Below, in pieces: positions 42,245-63,453 of a stretch of 64,000 nt of DNA (its first letter is position 1; every line of letters begins with the position of its first letter). The stretch lies in NCBI GenBank assembly GCA_965223865.1, contig OZ245020.1, forward strand, positions 1,344,001 through 1,408,000, given 5' to 3'. The stretch comes from Nitrosarchaeum sp. (GTDB lineage Archaea; Thermoproteota; Nitrososphaeria; Nitrososphaerales; Nitrosopumilaceae). The notes beneath the pieces were generated by a model that searched no databases, was not told the DNA's origin, and saw nothing but the letters and a program-made list of their open reading frames with translations. Position numbers and translations under genes: made by a program.

Positions 42245-42763
42245 ATGGTATTGAATCATTTATTGAATTTGTTGTGTCTTTGATTTATGAGAACAGATAT
42301 CCAGATGTTTTTTTAGCAGCCTATATAGAAACTGTTTTTCCCCTATTCCAAATGAAGTTGTGTTTCCATTGGCAGGGCATAGATTGTTGAAAAATAAGAT
42401 GTACCGTTTTCATATAATTGGGGCGGATTTGTAAGAGGATCAGGTGCAACTACTGGCGCATTTGTAATTTACATTATTTCAAAAGTTTTGGGCCAAACAG
42501 GTTTAGTAGAATATCTAAAATATGCCAAGATAAGAATTCAATTTAAAGAAAGCAGTAAGGGGTTTGCAAGATATAATAATAAATCAGTACTTATTGGAAG
42601 ACTGATACTAGGAATACAGGATTGGTATCAATTCCAACAGGAATTTTCAATATGAATCCTATAAAATCACTAATTTTTTTCTATGATTGAGTCATTTATG
42701 TGGAGTATTGTTCCTACAGCAATAGAATATTATTCTGGAATTGCAACAATTGGCTTTTTTTAA
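42241..42763 (+). pseudogene. dedA: DedA family membrane protein remnant
   Basis: fragments YPDVFLAAYIETVFP / IPNEVVFPLAG / GATTGAFVIYIISKVLG / SVLIGRLILGI / LVSIPTGIFNMNPIK in shifting frames. Confidence 0.8.
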
Positions 42764-55398: not shown

Positions 55399-55565
55399 GT
55401 TTTTCTAAAATTGTCCTCATTTATTTATATTAATATACAAAAAAACCACTAAAATAAATTTAGTATTAAATCTAAATTTTCAAAAAATGTTTGAACCTAT
55501 CTTTTATCCTAAAAAATTTTCCCATTAGACATCGTAAAGGACTAAATGAGACTAAAAATTTTAAA

Positions 55566-56276
55566 ATGACGTTGATTCATGGGCCATCCTTAGGAATTGG
55601 AGCTGGAATAACTGCAGTGGTTCTAATAGCTACATTTTTTGCATTTGATATATTCTCTGAACAAAAAGAACTGGTCATAGAACCCACACCAACAATTCAA
55701 GAAGAAGGTCCCGCCAAAATAACGATGGTTACTTTTCTTGAAAATGGCTCTCCAGTATTAGGAAATCCTGATGCACCCATAACACTAGTAGAATTTGGAG
55801 ACTATCAATGTCATTTTTGTAACGTATTTTTTCATAATACTGAAGAGAGTATTTTAAAAAATTTTGTTGAAACTGGAAAAGTAAAGATGATTTTCAAAGA
55901 CTATACCATCATAGGTCCAGATTCAGTAAATGCTGCTCATGGTGCACATTGTGCAAATGACCAAGGATTATTTTGGGAATACCATGATATTTTGTATAAT
56001 AATTGGAATGGTGAAAATAATGGATGGGCCTCATCAGATAATCTTTTCAAATTTGCCCAAGAAATCAATTTAGACATGGATAAATGGTCTGACTGTATGT
56101 TGAATGCTGAGCACTCTGAAATAATCCTAGCAAGTAATAATGATGCAAAAGATTTGGGTTTAACTGGAACTCCATCATTTTTTGTGATCGCACCTGATAA
56201 CAAGATAACAAAACTTCATGGGGCTCAGCCATACTCACAATTTGAAAATATTTTTAATTCCTTACTAGAAAATTAG
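55566..56276 (+). CDS. membrane-anchored DsbA-like thioredoxin-fold protein
   Basis: GNPDAPITLVEFGDYQCHFC, GTPSF, GAQPY; ATG 55566 likely start. Confidence 0.88.
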   Translation: MTLIHGPSLGIGAGITAVVLIATFFAFDIFSEQKELVIEPTPTIQEEGPAKITMVTFLENGSPVLGNPDAPITLVEFGDYQCHFCNVFFHNTEESILKNFVETGKVKMIFKDYTIIGPDSVNAAHGAHCANDQGLFWEYHDILYNNWNGENNGWASSDNLFKFAQEINLDMDKWSDCMLNAEHSEIILASNNDAKDLGLTGTPSFFVIAPDNKITKLHGAQPYSQFENIFNSLLEN

Positions 56277-58345: not shown

Positions 58346-59029
58346 TTAATCAAAGAGTGATTTCCAATCTAAATTTTTCTTAAATATTTTGTATAAGGAT
58401 GCATCACTTAGATCATTGATGAATGGGATAGAGCCTAAAACTTTGAGTCCCGTAAGATTTTTCAAATCACGTTTTAGTTCATCGATAGGATATCCTTGAT
58501 CAAAATTGTTGATAATAATTCCTTTAATCGGAATTTTATATTTCTCGCACATTTTACAAGTCATAATGGTATGATTAATGGTGCCAATTTTGCTTCTCGT
58601 GACAAGAACTGTAGGAATTTTCATTTCTTTAATTAGATTAGTAAAATAATAGTCCTTTAAGATCGGAGTCATAACTCCACCCATCCCTTCAACTAGTAGT
58701 ATTTCATGTAATTTTGATAATTTTTTGAAACTATCTAGAACGGATTTTATTTTGGGTTTTGTTTTTAGATTCTTCCAAGCAGTATAAGGAGATGCAGGTA
58801 TTGGGAAAAATTGAGGGTTTACTAAATTTTCAGGATCTGATATCTGAGCAGCGTTTGATAGAATTTCAACGTCTTCAGATTTGAATCCTCTTTTTTGAGC
58901 TGTTCCAGCCGCAAAAGGCTTCATCACGCCTATATCGACTCCCATCTTATGCATTGTCACGGCTAGACCTGCAGTGATGTACGTTTTTCCAACATCAGTA
59001 TCAGTGCCAGCAATAAACAGAGATTTCAT
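58346..59029 (-). CDS. bioD: dethiobiotin synthase
   Basis: GTDTDVGKT, MKP, VEGMGG, GTINHT. Confidence 0.94.
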   Translation of the reverse strand: MKSLFIAGTDTDVGKTYITAGLAVTMHKMGVDIGVMKPFAAGTAQKRGFKSEDVEILSNAAQISDPENLVNPQFFPIPASPYTAWKNLKTKPKIKSVLDSFKKLSKLHEILLVEGMGGVMTPILKDYYFTNLIKEMKIPTVLVTRSKIGTINHTIMTCKMCEKYKIPIKGIIINNFDQGYPIDELKRDLKNLTGLKVLGSIPFINDLSDASLYKIFKKNLDWKSLFD

Positions 59030-59101: not shown

Positions 59102-60418
59102 TTGAAAAGCTCTGTTTGGCATCCAAACACACAGATGAAAGAATGGAATTCATTTGATACCATTGTCAGCGGCAAAGGTATGTGGTTAATTGATTCTAAA
59201 GGAAACAAGATGTTAGATGCAGTAGCATCGATGTGGTGTAATGTATGGGGTCATTCGAAACCAGAACTAATTAAGGCAATTACAAATCAAAATAAAAAAC
59301 TTCAACATTCTTCAATGTTTAATCTAACTAACGAGCCATCAGAAAAATTAGCTCAAAATTTAGTAAAAATATCCCCTGGAATGCACAAAGTGTTTTTTTC
59401 AGACAATGGGTCATCTGCAATGGAGATATCGTTTAAGCTAGCGCTGCAATATTGGTATAACATTGGTGAAAAGAAAAAAACAAAGATAATGACACTGGAA
59501 AATGGATATCATGGAGATACATTTGGTTCAATGTCCGTAGGATTTGTTCCTGAATTTTTTGGCAAATTTAAAAAACAACTATTTTCTACAATACAAATTC
59601 CTGTTCCAAATAAATACCGAATACCAAAAGGATACACAGTTTCTGAATATGAAAATTATTGTCTTGATAAAATTGAAAAACAAATGGCAAAAGATGATAA
59701 AATTGCAGCATTTGTAATGGAAAGTGGCGCTCAAGTTGCTGGAGGGGTAATTATTTTTCCCAAAGGTTTTCAAAGAAAGATTAGTCAATTATGTAAAAAA
59801 TACAATGTGCTTTTTGTTTTAGATGAGATTGCTACTGGATTTGGAAGATTAGGTTCCATGACAGAATATACAAAGCAAAAAAGTAATCCAGATATTGTAG
59901 CCTTTGGAAAAATGCTAACTGGAGGGTATCTTACTATGGCTGCTACTTTAGCAAACAAAAAAATCTATGATTCCTTTTTGGGAGAATTTAACGAGTGGAG
60001 ACATTTGTTTCATGGTCATACATACACTGGAAATCCACTTGCGGCAGCAGTTGCAAATGAGAATTTACGATTATATCAGAAAAATCAACTGATCAAAAAA
60101 ATCCAAAAAACATCAAAAGTTTTTGAAAAATATTATGATGAAATTGCAGATATCGATATTGTAGGAGATATTAGACATAAAGGAATGCTTATGGGAATTG
60201 AACTTGTTAAAGACAAAAAGAAAAAGATTCCAATCCATCCTGAAAAATCAATTAACAAAATATTCTTTGAAGAAGGAAAGAAAAATGGAATTTATCTTCG
60301 CACATTAGGAAATATTGTAATGCTTGTACCGCCCTTGGACATATCTGAGAAAGAATTGGATTTACTAATTACAAGAACCATTTCTACTATAAAGAATTCA
60401 AAAAAACATGTATTGTAA
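59102..60418 (+). CDS. bioA: adenosylmethionine-8-amino-7-oxononanoate aminotransferase
   Basis: VWHPNTQM, SDNGS, YHGDT, DEIATGFGR, GKMLTGGY, HGHTYTGNP. Confidence 0.94.
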   Translation: MKSSVWHPNTQMKEWNSFDTIVSGKGMWLIDSKGNKMLDAVASMWCNVWGHSKPELIKAITNQNKKLQHSSMFNLTNEPSEKLAQNLVKISPGMHKVFFSDNGSSAMEISFKLALQYWYNIGEKKKTKIMTLENGYHGDTFGSMSVGFVPEFFGKFKKQLFSTIQIPVPNKYRIPKGYTVSEYENYCLDKIEKQMAKDDKIAAFVMESGAQVAGGVIIFPKGFQRKISQLCKKYNVLFVLDEIATGFGRLGSMTEYTKQKSNPDIVAFGKMLTGGYLTMAATLANKKIYDSFLGEFNEWRHLFHGHTYTGNPLAAAVANENLRLYQKNQLIKKIQKTSKVFEKYYDEIADIDIVGDIRHKGMLMGIELVKDKKKKIPIHPEKSINKIFFEEGKKNGIYLRTLGNIVMLVPPLDISEKELDLLITRTISTIKNSKKHVL

Positions 60419-60655
60419 ATAAATTCAGGATTTAAGAATAATTAGAACATCAATCTTCATTATTGGGTGTGAATAGAATTTTTTGAAGATCAGGTATCTT
60501 ACTCCGGTCGAATCCCATATAGTTTATTTTTATTTCCAAAATAGTAATCTAGTAATCTAGAATTCAATTATATTCTAATAGTTTGGAACAGTTTTGTATT
60601 CTAAAAAAAAGGAAGCATGAGATATTTTATAGATAAAAAAAATTTTAGACTCTCA

Positions 60656-62254
60656 ATGACTAAAAATAAAGCAAAAAACATTGCAGTTCTTTGTTCAGTT
60701 GCATTTCTATCCATCACCGTATTTGGAAGCTCAACTGCATTTGCAGAAGAAAATTCCGGATACAAAATGGCTGATGATGTTAGTGCAACTTTGACATTCA
60801 CATTCAGAGACGGTGTTGAAACACATGAGTTTCCAGTCTTTAAGATGACCTCTGATCTTGTTTCAAATGTTGGAACAACATTTAATGTTCAAGGTGTAGT
60901 AAAAGAGGCTCCTCATTTGCATAAGGCATTAGATGAATCTTTTAAGTATAGATTAATGGTGTCTACTGGATCAAGTAGTTTAGAATATGATTACAGATTT
61001 TTTGACGTAAATGTAGTTATTTCAAATGATACTGAAATCATACGTAATGTAAACTATTACAACTGTGAAGTTCTGGACTACAAAATTAAGACAATGAAAG
61101 ATGATTATGAAAGCTGGGGATTCTATGAGAAAGTAGGATTTGCAATTGTAGATGACATCGACTTTAGATGCGGTGGTGTAATGTCAAATGATGAAATTCC
61201 ATCAGAGCCACGCTCCACTACAAACCAGATAGTATATGACTATGGTCAAACTCCATTCAAATTTGCCAGTGATGCAAGAACCTTTGTAACTTTCAAATTT
61301 GATGAAGGAACTGAAAAAATAGAGTTTCCAATTTTTGAGTTAACGACTGGTTTTGAAGAAGAAGATGATTCTGGTCCTAGTTTTCATGTAGAAGGAACTG
61401 TGATAAACCATCCACTATTGGATAATGCAATAAACCAGGCACGAAATACCAAGGGATTGTCAAGTACCTTTAACACTGATTTTGAGGCACTTGTCGAATT
61501 TACCAATAATGGTAAAGTGGTACGGGGCCTTGATTTTACAGATTGTAGAGTATCTTCCTTTTTCATTGATACCTATCAAGATAAGGAAGAAGGATACACT
61601 GGTAAACGTGGCTTTGCATTAATCGAAAAAGTTGACTTTACATGTGCTGGAATGACTCCTCTTAATCCAACCTATGATAAAGTTAAAGGAAATGCACCTG
61701 TTTGGTCTACTACCAAAGTATCAAATGAATACATGGTAAATTCATACAATATGGGACAAGGTCCTCATGCTGTAGCTACTTTGACTTTCAGTGATGGACA
61801 AGAAACAATTAATTTTCCAATATTTGAACAAGGAAATTTGTTGGATAGGTCTTACCCAACTATTGAATTTGTAGCAGTTCCAGGGGAATATCCATTACTG
61901 TACAAGCATGTTGATGATGCACAAAAGCTTGGACAAAAAGTGAGTGGAGTAAATGCACTTTCTGACTTGTTTGATGTAGATGTTCAACTGGTATACGGAG
62001 AAGATTCTATACGAGAATTCAACTATTCAAATTGCAGAAGTGTTGACTATGTCATAAAAACCCAGCATGACAAAGATGAGAGTTTCTTTAAAGGATTTGC
62101 CTTGACAAATGAATTTCATCTTGAATGCCAAGGATATCATCCATATAGTCCAGTCTATGATGCAATGTTTAATTCATACGAAAAAGCAAACACATCAAGT
62201 AGTATGGACCTACTAAGCACAGATGATTGGGGTCCAGGATTCTACGTACAGTAG
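60656..62254 (+). CDS. secreted protein with three tandem homologous beta-rich domains
   Basis: signal peptide ending STAFA; three repeats sharing TFxFxDG.E..EFPxF, [ND]C..xY.I.T..D..E, GFA, [FL]xCxG; start ATG 60656 (or 60617). Confidence 0.85.
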   Translation: MTKNKAKNIAVLCSVAFLSITVFGSSTAFAEENSGYKMADDVSATLTFTFRDGVETHEFPVFKMTSDLVSNVGTTFNVQGVVKEAPHLHKALDESFKYRLMVSTGSSSLEYDYRFFDVNVVISNDTEIIRNVNYYNCEVLDYKIKTMKDDYESWGFYEKVGFAIVDDIDFRCGGVMSNDEIPSEPRSTTNQIVYDYGQTPFKFASDARTFVTFKFDEGTEKIEFPIFELTTGFEEEDDSGPSFHVEGTVINHPLLDNAINQARNTKGLSSTFNTDFEALVEFTNNGKVVRGLDFTDCRVSSFFIDTYQDKEEGYTGKRGFALIEKVDFTCAGMTPLNPTYDKVKGNAPVWSTTKVSNEYMVNSYNMGQGPHAVATLTFSDGQETINFPIFEQGNLLDRSYPTIEFVAVPGEYPLLYKHVDDAQKLGQKVSGVNALSDLFDVDVQLVYGEDSIREFNYSNCRSVDYVIKTQHDKDESFFKGFALTNEFHLECQGYHPYSPVYDAMFNSYEKANTSSSMDLLSTDDWGPGFYVQ

Positions 62255-62257
62255 ATC

Positions 62258-62272
62258 TTTTTTCTTTTTTTT
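62258..62272 (+). terminator. oligo-T archaeal terminator
   Basis: T6-C-T8 tract immediately after the stop at 62254. Confidence 0.55.
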
Positions 62273-62313
62273 ATTGAAAATATTAAATTACTTTCAAATG
62301 ATTTGAAAATAAA

Positions 62314-63453
62314 TTGAAAATTATAATTTCTCTATTAGCAATGTTTTTGTTTACGGGATTAATTGCTCCATCTCTTGCTGATACTATTGAACCACCATTA
62401 AAACAGTATGATTCAAAAACAGATCCACATAACATCAAATGTAAACCAGAGTTAAAATTAGTATTCAAAGATAAGGTTTGGAGTCCAGCATGTGTAAAGC
62501 CATCAAGTGTTGACAAGCTAATTGAAAGAGGTTGGGCAGCAAAACATGATCCCCATCACATGGATGTAATGATGCCAATGAAAAAAGAAAGAGTATTTTT
62601 TACATTACAGGGAGATGACCAAGTAGCATCCATAAGCATGGAAAAATGGACTGCAGGCCCAAAAATGACCTATCTATCTGTAAATAATGACAGTACCGTG
62701 ATTCTAGCTACAAGCAGTGGTTCTGATACAATCTTTGCTTTTGATACATTTCAAGGAGAACTAATCTCTGAGGTTAAAGTTGGCAGTACTCCAAAGGGAG
62801 TAAAATTTCATCCAGATGGCAAAATTGCCTTTGTAGCAAATGAGGGCTCCGGAACAGTAGGAGTAATTGAAACTTATTCCTGGAATGTAACAAAAGAGAT
62901 TGAGGTAGGACAATTACCTCATAACATCAGGTTTGATTCTACCGGAAAAACTGCATACGTAACTTTGCAGGGAGAAGATAAGATTGCCATAATTGATGTT
63001 GAACATCTACAAATGATAGACTCAATTTCAGTAGGAAATATGCCACATAATCTTGATTTGTCACCTGATGACAGATACCTATACACATCCAACATTGGAA
63101 CTAACGATGTTGCAGTAATAGATCTGCAAGCCAAGGAGATCATCAAGAGAATACCTGTTAGTACAGGGCACCATGGAATAGATGTCTCCCCTGATGGGAA
63201 ACGAGTCTATGTTTCAGGTATCGGTTCAGATCTGGTAAACGTGATCGATGTTGATTCCTTTGAACTGATAAAGGTGATTGCAGTAGGTAATGGTCCACAC
63301 GGGATTCGTACAAATGATAATGGAAGCAAACTGTATGTGGGAGTAACAAAAACCAATGAAATTGCGGTAATAGACACCAAAAGTCTTACAGTTACGCAAA
63401 ATATCAAAACAGGAAATATTCCATTTTGGATAGCCATTCCTGAAAATCCCTAG
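62314..63453 (+). CDS. secreted YncE/YVTN beta-propeller protein with N-terminal PPLKQ/SPACVKP domain
   Basis: signal peptide; PPLKQ..C..SPACVKP..KLIERGW; repeated VG.xPH...SPDG..YV blades. Confidence 0.88.
   Translation: MKIIISLLAMFLFTGLIAPSLADTIEPPLKQYDSKTDPHNIKCKPELKLVFKDKVWSPACVKPSSVDKLIERGWAAKHDPHHMDVMMPMKKERVFFTLQGDDQVASISMEKWTAGPKMTYLSVNNDSTVILATSSGSDTIFAFDTFQGELISEVKVGSTPKGVKFHPDGKIAFVANEGSGTVGVIETYSWNVTKEIEVGQLPHNIRFDSTGKTAYVTLQGEDKIAIIDVEHLQMIDSISVGNMPHNLDLSPDDRYLYTSNIGTNDVAVIDLQAKEIIKRIPVSTGHHGIDVSPDGKRVYVSGIGSDLVNVIDVDSFELIKVIAVGNGPHGIRTNDNGSKLYVGVTKTNEIAVIDTKSLTVTQNIKTGNIPFWIAIPENP

Follow-up and report, generated by a model that had tools for sequence, protein, structure and literature searches.

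A probably exported Nitrosarchaeum protein made of three tandem domains with a predicted tail-tube/Hcp fold, and its relatives in phosphate-uptake islands

The stretch of DNA analysed here (the window; 64,000 nucleotides, positions 1,344,001 to 1,408,000 of the forward strand of contig OZ245020.1, assembly GCA_965223865.1, from Nitrosarchaeum sp.) encodes a protein of 532 amino acids that appears to be exported and that consists of three homologous domains, all of which very probably have the fold of phage tail-tube and Hcp proteins, as judged from structure models. Two such chains are rather likely, by the same kind of modelling, to close into a pseudo-hexameric ring. To our knowledge, this fold is found almost only in phage tails, tailocins, injection systems and type VI secretion machinery (T6SS), and in all of those that we know of synthesis is cytoplasmic and assembly involves a sheath or a tape measure. 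In the present protein, this fold is apparently combined with export by general secretion and with conserved cysteine pairs, no partner genes were found, and the protein is conserved in hundreds of genomes. The family belongs to one of the most abundant archaeal groups of the sea. A second copy in the same genome lies in a phosphate-uptake island and, judging from gene order and promoters, whether the family has a phosphate-related role is close to an even call. The gene and its parts are the following.

60656..62254 (+): coding sequence of the predicted exported triple tube-fold protein, 532 amino acids plus stop, with 642 homologs at E<=1e-3
60656..60745 (+): Sec-type signal peptide, residues 1-30 (...AFA/EE), as read by eye from the sequence
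60761..61195 (+): predicted tube/Hcp-fold domain 1, residues 36-180, with Cys137 and Cys172 (repeat BLASTP, domain profile, structure match)
61256..61675 (+): predicted tube/Hcp-fold domain 2, residues 201-340, with Cys297 and Cys330 and the conserved hairpin tip DKEEG[YF]TGK[SR]GFA (same three lines of evidence)
61745..62158 (+): predicted tube/Hcp-fold domain 3, residues 364-501, with Cys460 and Cys491 (same three lines of evidence)
62159..62251 (+): C-terminal tail of low model confidence, with the end motif SSxDL ... W..PGFY, W525 and F529 being invariant in 51 homologs
62255..62287 (+): T-rich, terminator-like stretch directly 3′ of the stop, read from the sequence

The enclosing open reading frame (ORF; 60617..62254, +) has 545 codons, or 532 when counted from the ATG at 60656. 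This second ATG and the sequence preceding it are kept in a paralog from a genome of the same genus, unlike the ATG at 60617, and 60656 is therefore the better start, in agreement with the choice made in an earlier reading of the window from the sequence only, without database searches (the sequence-only reading). The leader, MTKNKAKNIAVLCSVAFLSITVFGSSTAFA/EENSG, shows by eye the basic n-region, the hydrophobic core and the AxA motif expected from that reading, which had called a Sec-type signal peptide. A30 and E32 are nearly invariant among the 51 homologs, and a hydrophobic leader stands at the start of every apparently complete relative inspected; we infer from this that the protein is exported through Sec. 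Two other sorting signals were considered and rejected, namely a lipobox at leader Cys13, for which the preceding residues are unfit and whose cysteine is missing from the second copy in the genome, and a PGF-CTERM-type signal, given that the chain ends four residues past the PGF and has no membrane helix there. A tail similar to that of the present protein (S-S-x-D-L...W...[FY]) ends many one-domain relatives.

That the three repeats, of about 140 amino acids each, are homologous follows from BLASTP comparison of the thirds of the protein against each other (domains 1 and 2, 30% identity over 142 amino acids, E 1e-22; domains 1 and 3, 35% over 141, E 2e-20; domains 2 and 3, 26% over 161, E 9e-17), and the claim of three homologous domains thus holds at 26-35% identity. 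The limits listed above were set by a profile of the domain. The ranges proposed earlier by eye lie close to them, except that the second range was one base out of frame, and the motifs quoted at the time are all present in the sequence. The two conserved cysteines noted per domain proved invariant in 141 aligned domain copies, and each domain probably contains one disulfide that stabilises its fold. A membrane-anchored DsbA-like thioredoxin (PF13462, PF01323) is encoded 4 kb upstream at 55491-56276 (+) and may be a plausible oxidant for exported cysteine pairs. The tip of the domain 2 hairpin, G-[YF]-T-G-K-[SR]-G, is reminiscent of a P-loop; this reading was dropped, as the spacing does not fit a Walker A motif and the tip is absent from the other two domains.

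Sequence searches gave no family for the protein: Pfam returned none at E<=10, PHROGs a single weak match of unknown function (phrog_23497, E 0.046) and the PDB none for the protein, the best PDB match of the domain profile being YjcQ at E 0.7. The fold assignment comes from models. An AlphaFold2 model built from 51 homologs reached a mean pLDDT (predicted local distance difference test) of 77.3 and a pTM (predicted template-modelling score) of 0.76, and it predicts for each domain four strands, a helix, a long hairpin and two more strands. When this model was searched against the PDB with Foldseek, tail-tube and baseplate chains came out on top (nine matches at E<=0.001; 6rao_F with probability 1.00 and TMt 0.54). 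VIA-align comparison of the full model with the best 991 chains from Foldseek then placed domain 3 (model residues 367-501) on 9qgl_5A with Z 12.2 and a root-mean-square deviation (rmsd) of 3.3 over 122 aligned residues, and domain 1 (residues 39-180) on 6j0n_n with Z 11.6 and rmsd 3.1 over 120; Hcp1 (8z7k_A) aligned at Z 10.7, rmsd 2.5 over 111 residues, and many other Hcp chains lay at Z about 10-10.7. Domain 2, folded alone on the 141-row domain alignment (pLDDT 81.3) and compared by VIA with 48,161 chains without any preselection by Foldseek, matched the same tube chain 6j0n_n at Z 13.2 (rmsd 3.1, 124/148 residues) and Hcp1 8z7k_A at Z 12.6 (rmsd 2.6, 111/138 residues). Of its best 50 rows, 49 were tube, Hcp, tail, tailocin or gene-transfer-agent entries or Hcp1 fusion constructs (among the latter 4ksr, which we take to be an Hcp1 fusion, its entry title not saying so), and the remaining one was an uncharacterised S. 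aureus protein. The best named set in the Atlas comparison was PF06841 at 0.87, which we treat as a lead. Therefore, the by-eye call of a tube/Hcp fold is well matched for all three domains (Z 11.6-13.2 over 120-124 residues), and none of the folds that would speak against it (immunoglobulin-like, jelly-roll or lipocalin) competes among the structure matches.

The sequence-only reading had further proposed that a chain of three fused domains could dimerise into a pseudo-hexameric ring. A complex of two copies of residues 36-505 was modelled, and the interface score (ipSAE) was 0.64, 0.63 and 0.66, as against 0.00 for the best control; the mark used for calibration is reached by 20 of 30 proteins solved as same-chain pairs and by one of 23 solved as single chains. 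The runs share at least 96% of their contacts, with a partner pLDDT of at least 81. The modelled interface is symmetric and sets domain 1 (residues 81-100 and 139-164) against domain 3 of the partner (364-408 and 445-498), with a few further contacts from the start and the hairpin tip of domain 2, and it includes, from each of the three domains, the tip of the long conserved beta-hairpin. Contacts between domain 1 and the domain 3 of the partner match what is predicted from a head-to-tail closure of two half-rings, and the two-chain model, as far as scores and contact lists go, has passed its controls. In addition, domains 1 and 2 superpose together on the two-domain chain 9b45_d (Z 9.6, rmsd 3.8, 189/285 residues), and a two-domain stretch superposes on 8eon_E (Z 9.4, rmsd 4.5, 189/287 residues; both with VIA on the full model), which suggests that neighbouring domains within the modelled chain are arranged like neighbours in a ring.

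The domain numbers found in the family are of interest in this respect. A hidden Markov model (HMM) of the domain, searched against the full library, found 191 representatives at E<=1e-3. Out of the 150 that were listed, 77 look complete and 73 were set aside as fragments or uncertain. Among the 77, one Cys-pair signature was counted in 57, three in 11 and five or six in seven, the last being proteins of about 1100-1200 amino acids. The two remaining apparent two-domain representatives were discarded, one being three-domain by HMM and the other truncated. One further protein, P0121, which lacks a start methionine, has six full domains behind a single leader. Going by these signatures, then, the chains come as one, three or about six domains, and the relatives of about 1100-1200 amino acids may represent a whole ring in one chain. 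The seven long proteins (P0171, P0197, P0202, P0210, P0214, P0246 and P0247) are metagenomic and divergent, contain 14-16 cysteines in total, and have their Cys-pair signatures spaced by about 165 amino acids with a longer gap before the last. Some genomes carry two three-domain genes in tandem (loci L055 and L077), a possible route to a six-domain fusion such as that in P0121. From the series of one, three and six domains one could learn, as in a natural experiment, how fused subunits make up six-fold rings.

The family was found only in the Nitrosopumilaceae, in which it would have arisen. The named ones among the 642 homologs are all hypothetical proteins of Nitrosopumilus, Nitrosarchaeum or Nitrosopumilaceae, and in a phylum-wide sample of 401 genomes the domain occurs in 35, all of this family (34 of 56 besides the source genome), and was not found in the 344 that belong to other families. 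Within the Nitrosopumilaceae, 76 of 151 genomes and 12 of 24 genera carry it. Genera differ, some having one-domain and others three-domain forms, and a genome often holds two or three paralogs. Paralogs are apparently being lost in some lineages, as indicated by two broken relatives, one with an internal TAA and the other with four (G060:C1:691582-692963 and G383:C2:68867-69292). A literature search with subscription journals outside its coverage found, in the text accessible to it, no paper on this protein family. Papers that mention hcp together with Nitrosopumilus seem from their titles to deal with the nitrogen cycle, and hcp there probably stands for the hybrid cluster protein. In the accessible part of Qin et al. 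2020 (PMC7490402), pst and pit are described in these archaea without this gene, and the phosphate-uptake island is a trait linked to the ocean distribution of these archaea.

The second copy in the genome (C1:1845440-1847059, -) is located between PstS and the AbrB-PhoU/PstCAB/PhoU genes. The island reads, in order, PRC-barrel-like gene, ABC-2 exporter, PstS, tube-fold gene and, divergently, an AbrB-PhoU regulator, followed by PstC, PstA, PstB, PhoU, SbtA-like, PII-like, ArsR, ArsC and aquaporin and then by what we take to be a SixA-like gene, an exopolyphosphatase (Ppx) gene and a CHAD-domain gene; names are based on Pfam for PstS and AbrB-PhoU and on cluster membership or sequence motifs for the others. 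In other genomes, 35 of the 73 three-domain copies have a phosphate gene (PstS, PstC/A, PhoU, AbrB-PhoU or PiT) within 2.5 kb. Another 13 form a paralog group beside a putative topoisomerase IB gene, a short-chain dehydrogenase/reductase (SDR) gene and a helicase gene, and 25 are found elsewhere, several of them at the end of a contig on which the ABC-2/NHL side of the island can still be recognised. The same slot, between PstS and AbrB/PhoU-PstCAB, is occupied by one-domain genes in other genera (8 of 16 loci), and in genomes without Pst the gene often adjoins PhoU-PiT. Encoding in a pst or pit island thus applies to the twin copy and to 35 of 73 copies elsewhere; the window copy is not so encoded. 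Immediately upstream, the commonest neighbours are an NHL-repeat gene and pstS.

The island slot is also marked by a promoter word, the palindrome CTATATAG, which has 21 sites in the 2.0-Mb genome. Five of these fall inside a 16-kb stretch of the island. One each precedes pstS, the island copy (62 nt ahead of its start) and the SixA-like/Ppx genes, one separates AbrB-PhoU from pstC, and one marks the island edge. The word is further found ahead of a second AbrB-PhoU gene, ahead of the genes of two secreted proteins that are presumably phytase-like (by motifs only), and at 42321 in the window. In other genomes, the word stands at about -91 of the first start codon of the ORF in 30 of the 35 phosphate-context copies, in none of the 13 copies beside the putative topoisomerase IB gene and in 9 of the 25 other copies; likewise, it goes with all eight one-domain genes that occupy the pst slot and with none of the eight located elsewhere. 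CTATATAG is a candidate phosphate-regulon box or a special TATA box of Nitrosopumilaceae. Taken together, synteny and promoter word suggest a link to phosphate cassettes in general.

The window copy itself turns out to be a chimera of two paralogs, with the following components.

60545..60736 (+): promoter, 5′ leader and signal-peptide coding region of its own, which are kept in a same-genus non-island paralog; CTATATAG is absent
60737..62287 (+): gene-conversion tract, 1546/1551 positions (99.7%) identical to the island copy

The tract reaches from the last leader codons to 33 nt past the stop, and the two copies share nothing outside it. Over the promoter, leader and signal-peptide region the same-genus non-island paralog shows about 87% column identity, whereas its mature protein is only 54% identical to that of the window copy. 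In a quick maximum-likelihood tree of 70 mature sequences (support by the Shimodaira-Hasegawa-like approximate likelihood-ratio test, SH-aLRT, only), the window and island copies are sisters (SH-aLRT 100), nested with two phosphate-island genes in one clade (99), and the paralog that shares the leader of the window copy sits in a distant clade. The shared tract, the leader paralog from a foreign clade and the tree together indicate that the island copy has overwritten the mature part of an older paralog. This overwriting is recent, and its junction at 60737 is real: a contig of a second study bridges it (60300-60965), and the assembly graph of another run branches exactly at this position, into the leader of the other copy. 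Since the window copy has kept its own promoter and encodes the same mature part, two promoters, one of the phosphate type and a second one, can supply the cell with the same mature protein.

The explanation that we favour combines these elements. The protein would be exported through Sec, its three tandem tube-fold domains probably stabilised by disulfides, and two chains would most likely close head-to-tail into a six-domain ring outside the membrane. The ancestral slot of the gene would be the phosphate-uptake island, next to pstS, to AbrB-PhoU with pstCAB or to PhoU-PiT, behind a rare palindromic promoter word common to other phosphate genes. Because of this slot and this shared word, the protein could assist phosphate acquisition on the extracellular side, as a scaffold or conduit of ring shape between the membrane and the S-layer, where we infer that it resides. 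As a whole (an exported triple-domain ring, an accessory of phosphate acquisition, the window copy being second and converted) this explanation is in our estimate about evenly poised between right and wrong, and any specific mechanism is more tentative than that. If both the ring and the phosphate link are true, a building block of viruses would have been put to a new use, and archaeal phosphorus acquisition would gain an extracellular component hitherto missing.

A number of observations speak against this explanation. The window copy has no phosphate gene nearby, with bioA upstream and a beta-propeller gene and a bioB-like ORF downstream, and it lacks CTATATAG, carrying at 60515 the word CCATATAG, which occurs 42 times in the genome. 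Across the 151 Nitrosopumilaceae genomes, including the unpublished G429, G440 and G449, PstC (TIGR02138) is found in 106, and the presence of the family does not track it (both in 52, the family only in 24, PstC only in 54, neither in 21); clearly, Pst works without the tube-fold protein in many genera. The mature protein is acidic (isoelectric point 4.5; 80 D+E as against 41 K+R), which does not suggest an anion binder, and none of its conserved residues was recognised as belonging to a known phosphate site. As to the ring, its modelled geometry is drawn from model scores and contact lists, and the complex score may partly reflect the memory that the predictor has of solved Hcp and tube rings.

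Alternatively, the protein might be an envelope or structural component without any role in phosphate handling, the island being a flexible region for genes of exported proteins and the word a strong variant of the TATA box. Family presence uncorrelated with PstC fits such a view, as do the paralogs in at least two other conserved contexts (e.g. putative topoisomerase IB/SDR/helicase, 13 copies), an ABC-2 permease near 38 of 82 loci and an NHL protein near 26 of 82, the position of the window copy among biotin genes, and the TATA-like core of CTATATAG. However, the pstS/AbrB-PhoU slot has been kept across genera and across one- and three-domain architectures, and the word is rare, with only 21 sites, marks pstS, pstC/AbrB-PhoU, the Ppx operon, the second AbrB-PhoU gene and the presumed phytase-like proteins, and is absent from the non-island paralogs (0 of 13). 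We regard a role unrelated to phosphate as unlikely, although it is the alternative that fares best.

Somewhat less likely again is that the rings stack into an extracellular tube or filament, i.e. an appendage or a conduit between membrane and S-layer. The closest structures all stack into tubes, and hairpins of tube proteins mediate contacts between neighbouring subunits and between rings, so that the placing of the three conserved hairpin tips in the modelled interface could be taken in favour of stacking. Yet no tape-measure, sheath, initiator or terminator genes were found, and the conserved C-terminal tail suggests docking to a partner rather than polymerisation. It is also conceivable, but improbable, that the ring acts as an Hcp-like carrier or chaperone for an exported protein, e.g. 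PstS or the NHL-repeat protein, bound either inside its lumen or to its face. Binding of cargo within the lumen of Hcp rings is described in the accessible part of one report (PMC13035841). The prominence of the NHL gene and pstS directly upstream would agree with a carrier, and two one-domain relatives (P0226 and P0187) end in a C-terminal module of PstS; many family members, however, have neither neighbour. In this module, the last ~40 residues of PstS (L082:3388-4560, -), read W[IV]..NA.WWA.GLI.D.[DE][FY]..G[IL].[FY]L...GI; it has no Pfam match and may be a shared domain for anchoring or docking at the cell surface.

By the searches that follow, the protein does not belong to any contractile or phage machine. 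The earlier remark that no phage or T6SS genes are nearby can be extended from the window, which holds no contractile-system partners, to the whole genome (99.98% complete), in which the Pfam families for sheath (PF04984), gp25 (PF04965) and T4 gp19 (PF06841) have no match, control genomes responding to the same search. For the T6SS, the gp25/TssE-like family is absent from the genome, no search having been made for the sheath family VipB/TssC. Among viruses, tblastn against 50,697 phage records found no relative, and a search of viral contigs by full-length-alignment pattern gave 20 pattern matches, none of which was confirmed as a relative. Only the fold argues for a provirus, tailocin or contractile injection system of which the protein would be a remnant or a working part, and this is scarcely credible in view of the Sec leader on every apparently complete member inspected, the two invariant cysteines per domain, the housekeeping or phosphate neighbours, the lack of sheath, gp25 and gp19 matches and of viral relatives, and the 642 conserved intact homologs.

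Comparison with known systems is instructive for the preferred explanation, that of an exported ring serving phosphate acquisition. The tubes of contractile injection systems and myophages (Pvc, Afp and PlPVC1 chains 6j0n, 6j0b, 6rao and 9qgl; PF06841, Phage_T4_gp19) have the same domain fold and order of elements as the modelled domains and form six-fold rings, as is proposed here. There is no detectable sequence relation to them, though, and the present protein differs in its predicted Sec export, in the two invariant cysteines per domain and the three domains per chain, in that no sheath or baseplate genes were found, and in its context, which is phosphate uptake for the island copy and biotin genes for the window copy. 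Hcp/TssD of the T6SS (8z7k, 4hkh, 3he1, 1y12) shares the predicted fold and provides a precedent, its six-domain ring needing no sheath for stability and serving as a carrier. Export of Hcp takes place through the T6SS and without a signal peptide. The present protein, in contrast, comes from an archaeon and has an apparent Sec leader and a tandem triplication, and no genes of a T6SS were found.

Tandem domains whose oligomer restores the number six are seen in pb6 of phage T5 and in baseplate chains with two tube domains (9b45_d, 8eon_E; gp27/VgrG hubs). The accessible text on pb6 describes two tube domains and a trimer (PMC5717097). The ring proposed here would instead be made of three domains by two chains, not two by three, and is not a tail part; this arrangement was not seen among the best 50 rows of either the Foldseek or the VIA full-model comparison.

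In function, the nearest parallel may be sought in bacteria, in which the porins OprP and PhoE are envelope accessories of phosphate starvation encoded with pst. As in that case, a non-transporter envelope protein is encoded in or beside a high-affinity phosphate locus, and here it is probably co-regulated through the promoter word. By contrast, the predicted fold is unrelated, the host is an archaeon without an outer membrane, and anion selectivity or a channel would be conjectural in the present protein. Pushed to its furthest, the comparison would make of a virus-type tube ring a Sec-exported, free-standing part of the envelope, a gate or collector for anions under or through the S-layer of marine ammonia oxidisers that is induced by phosphate starvation, an archaeal counterpart of OprP/PhoE whose one, three or six domains always complete six; we consider this full picture distinctly unlikely. 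The S-layer of these archaea is reported to attract cations.

The neighbours of the gene in the window are the DsbA-like thioredoxin gene, a gene for HMG-CoA synthase, and those listed below.

58346-59029 (-): bioD
59102-60418: bioA, upstream of the tube-fold gene
62314-63453 (+): exported YncE/lactonase-type beta-propeller with its own leader, between the tube-fold gene and the bioB-like ORF
63674 onward: bioB-like ORF, open at its 3′ end, with a CxxxCxxC-type motif; Pfam gives no family for the fragment

Genes of the sequence cluster c25, found next to several of the phosphate islands, could be taken for BioA. In the present genome, the c25 gene beside the island is a different class-III aminotransferase, and no link between island and biotin genes is therefore claimed. 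In the window, the tube-fold gene and the beta-propeller gene together split the biotin genes, with bioD and bioA on one side and the bioB-like ORF on the other.

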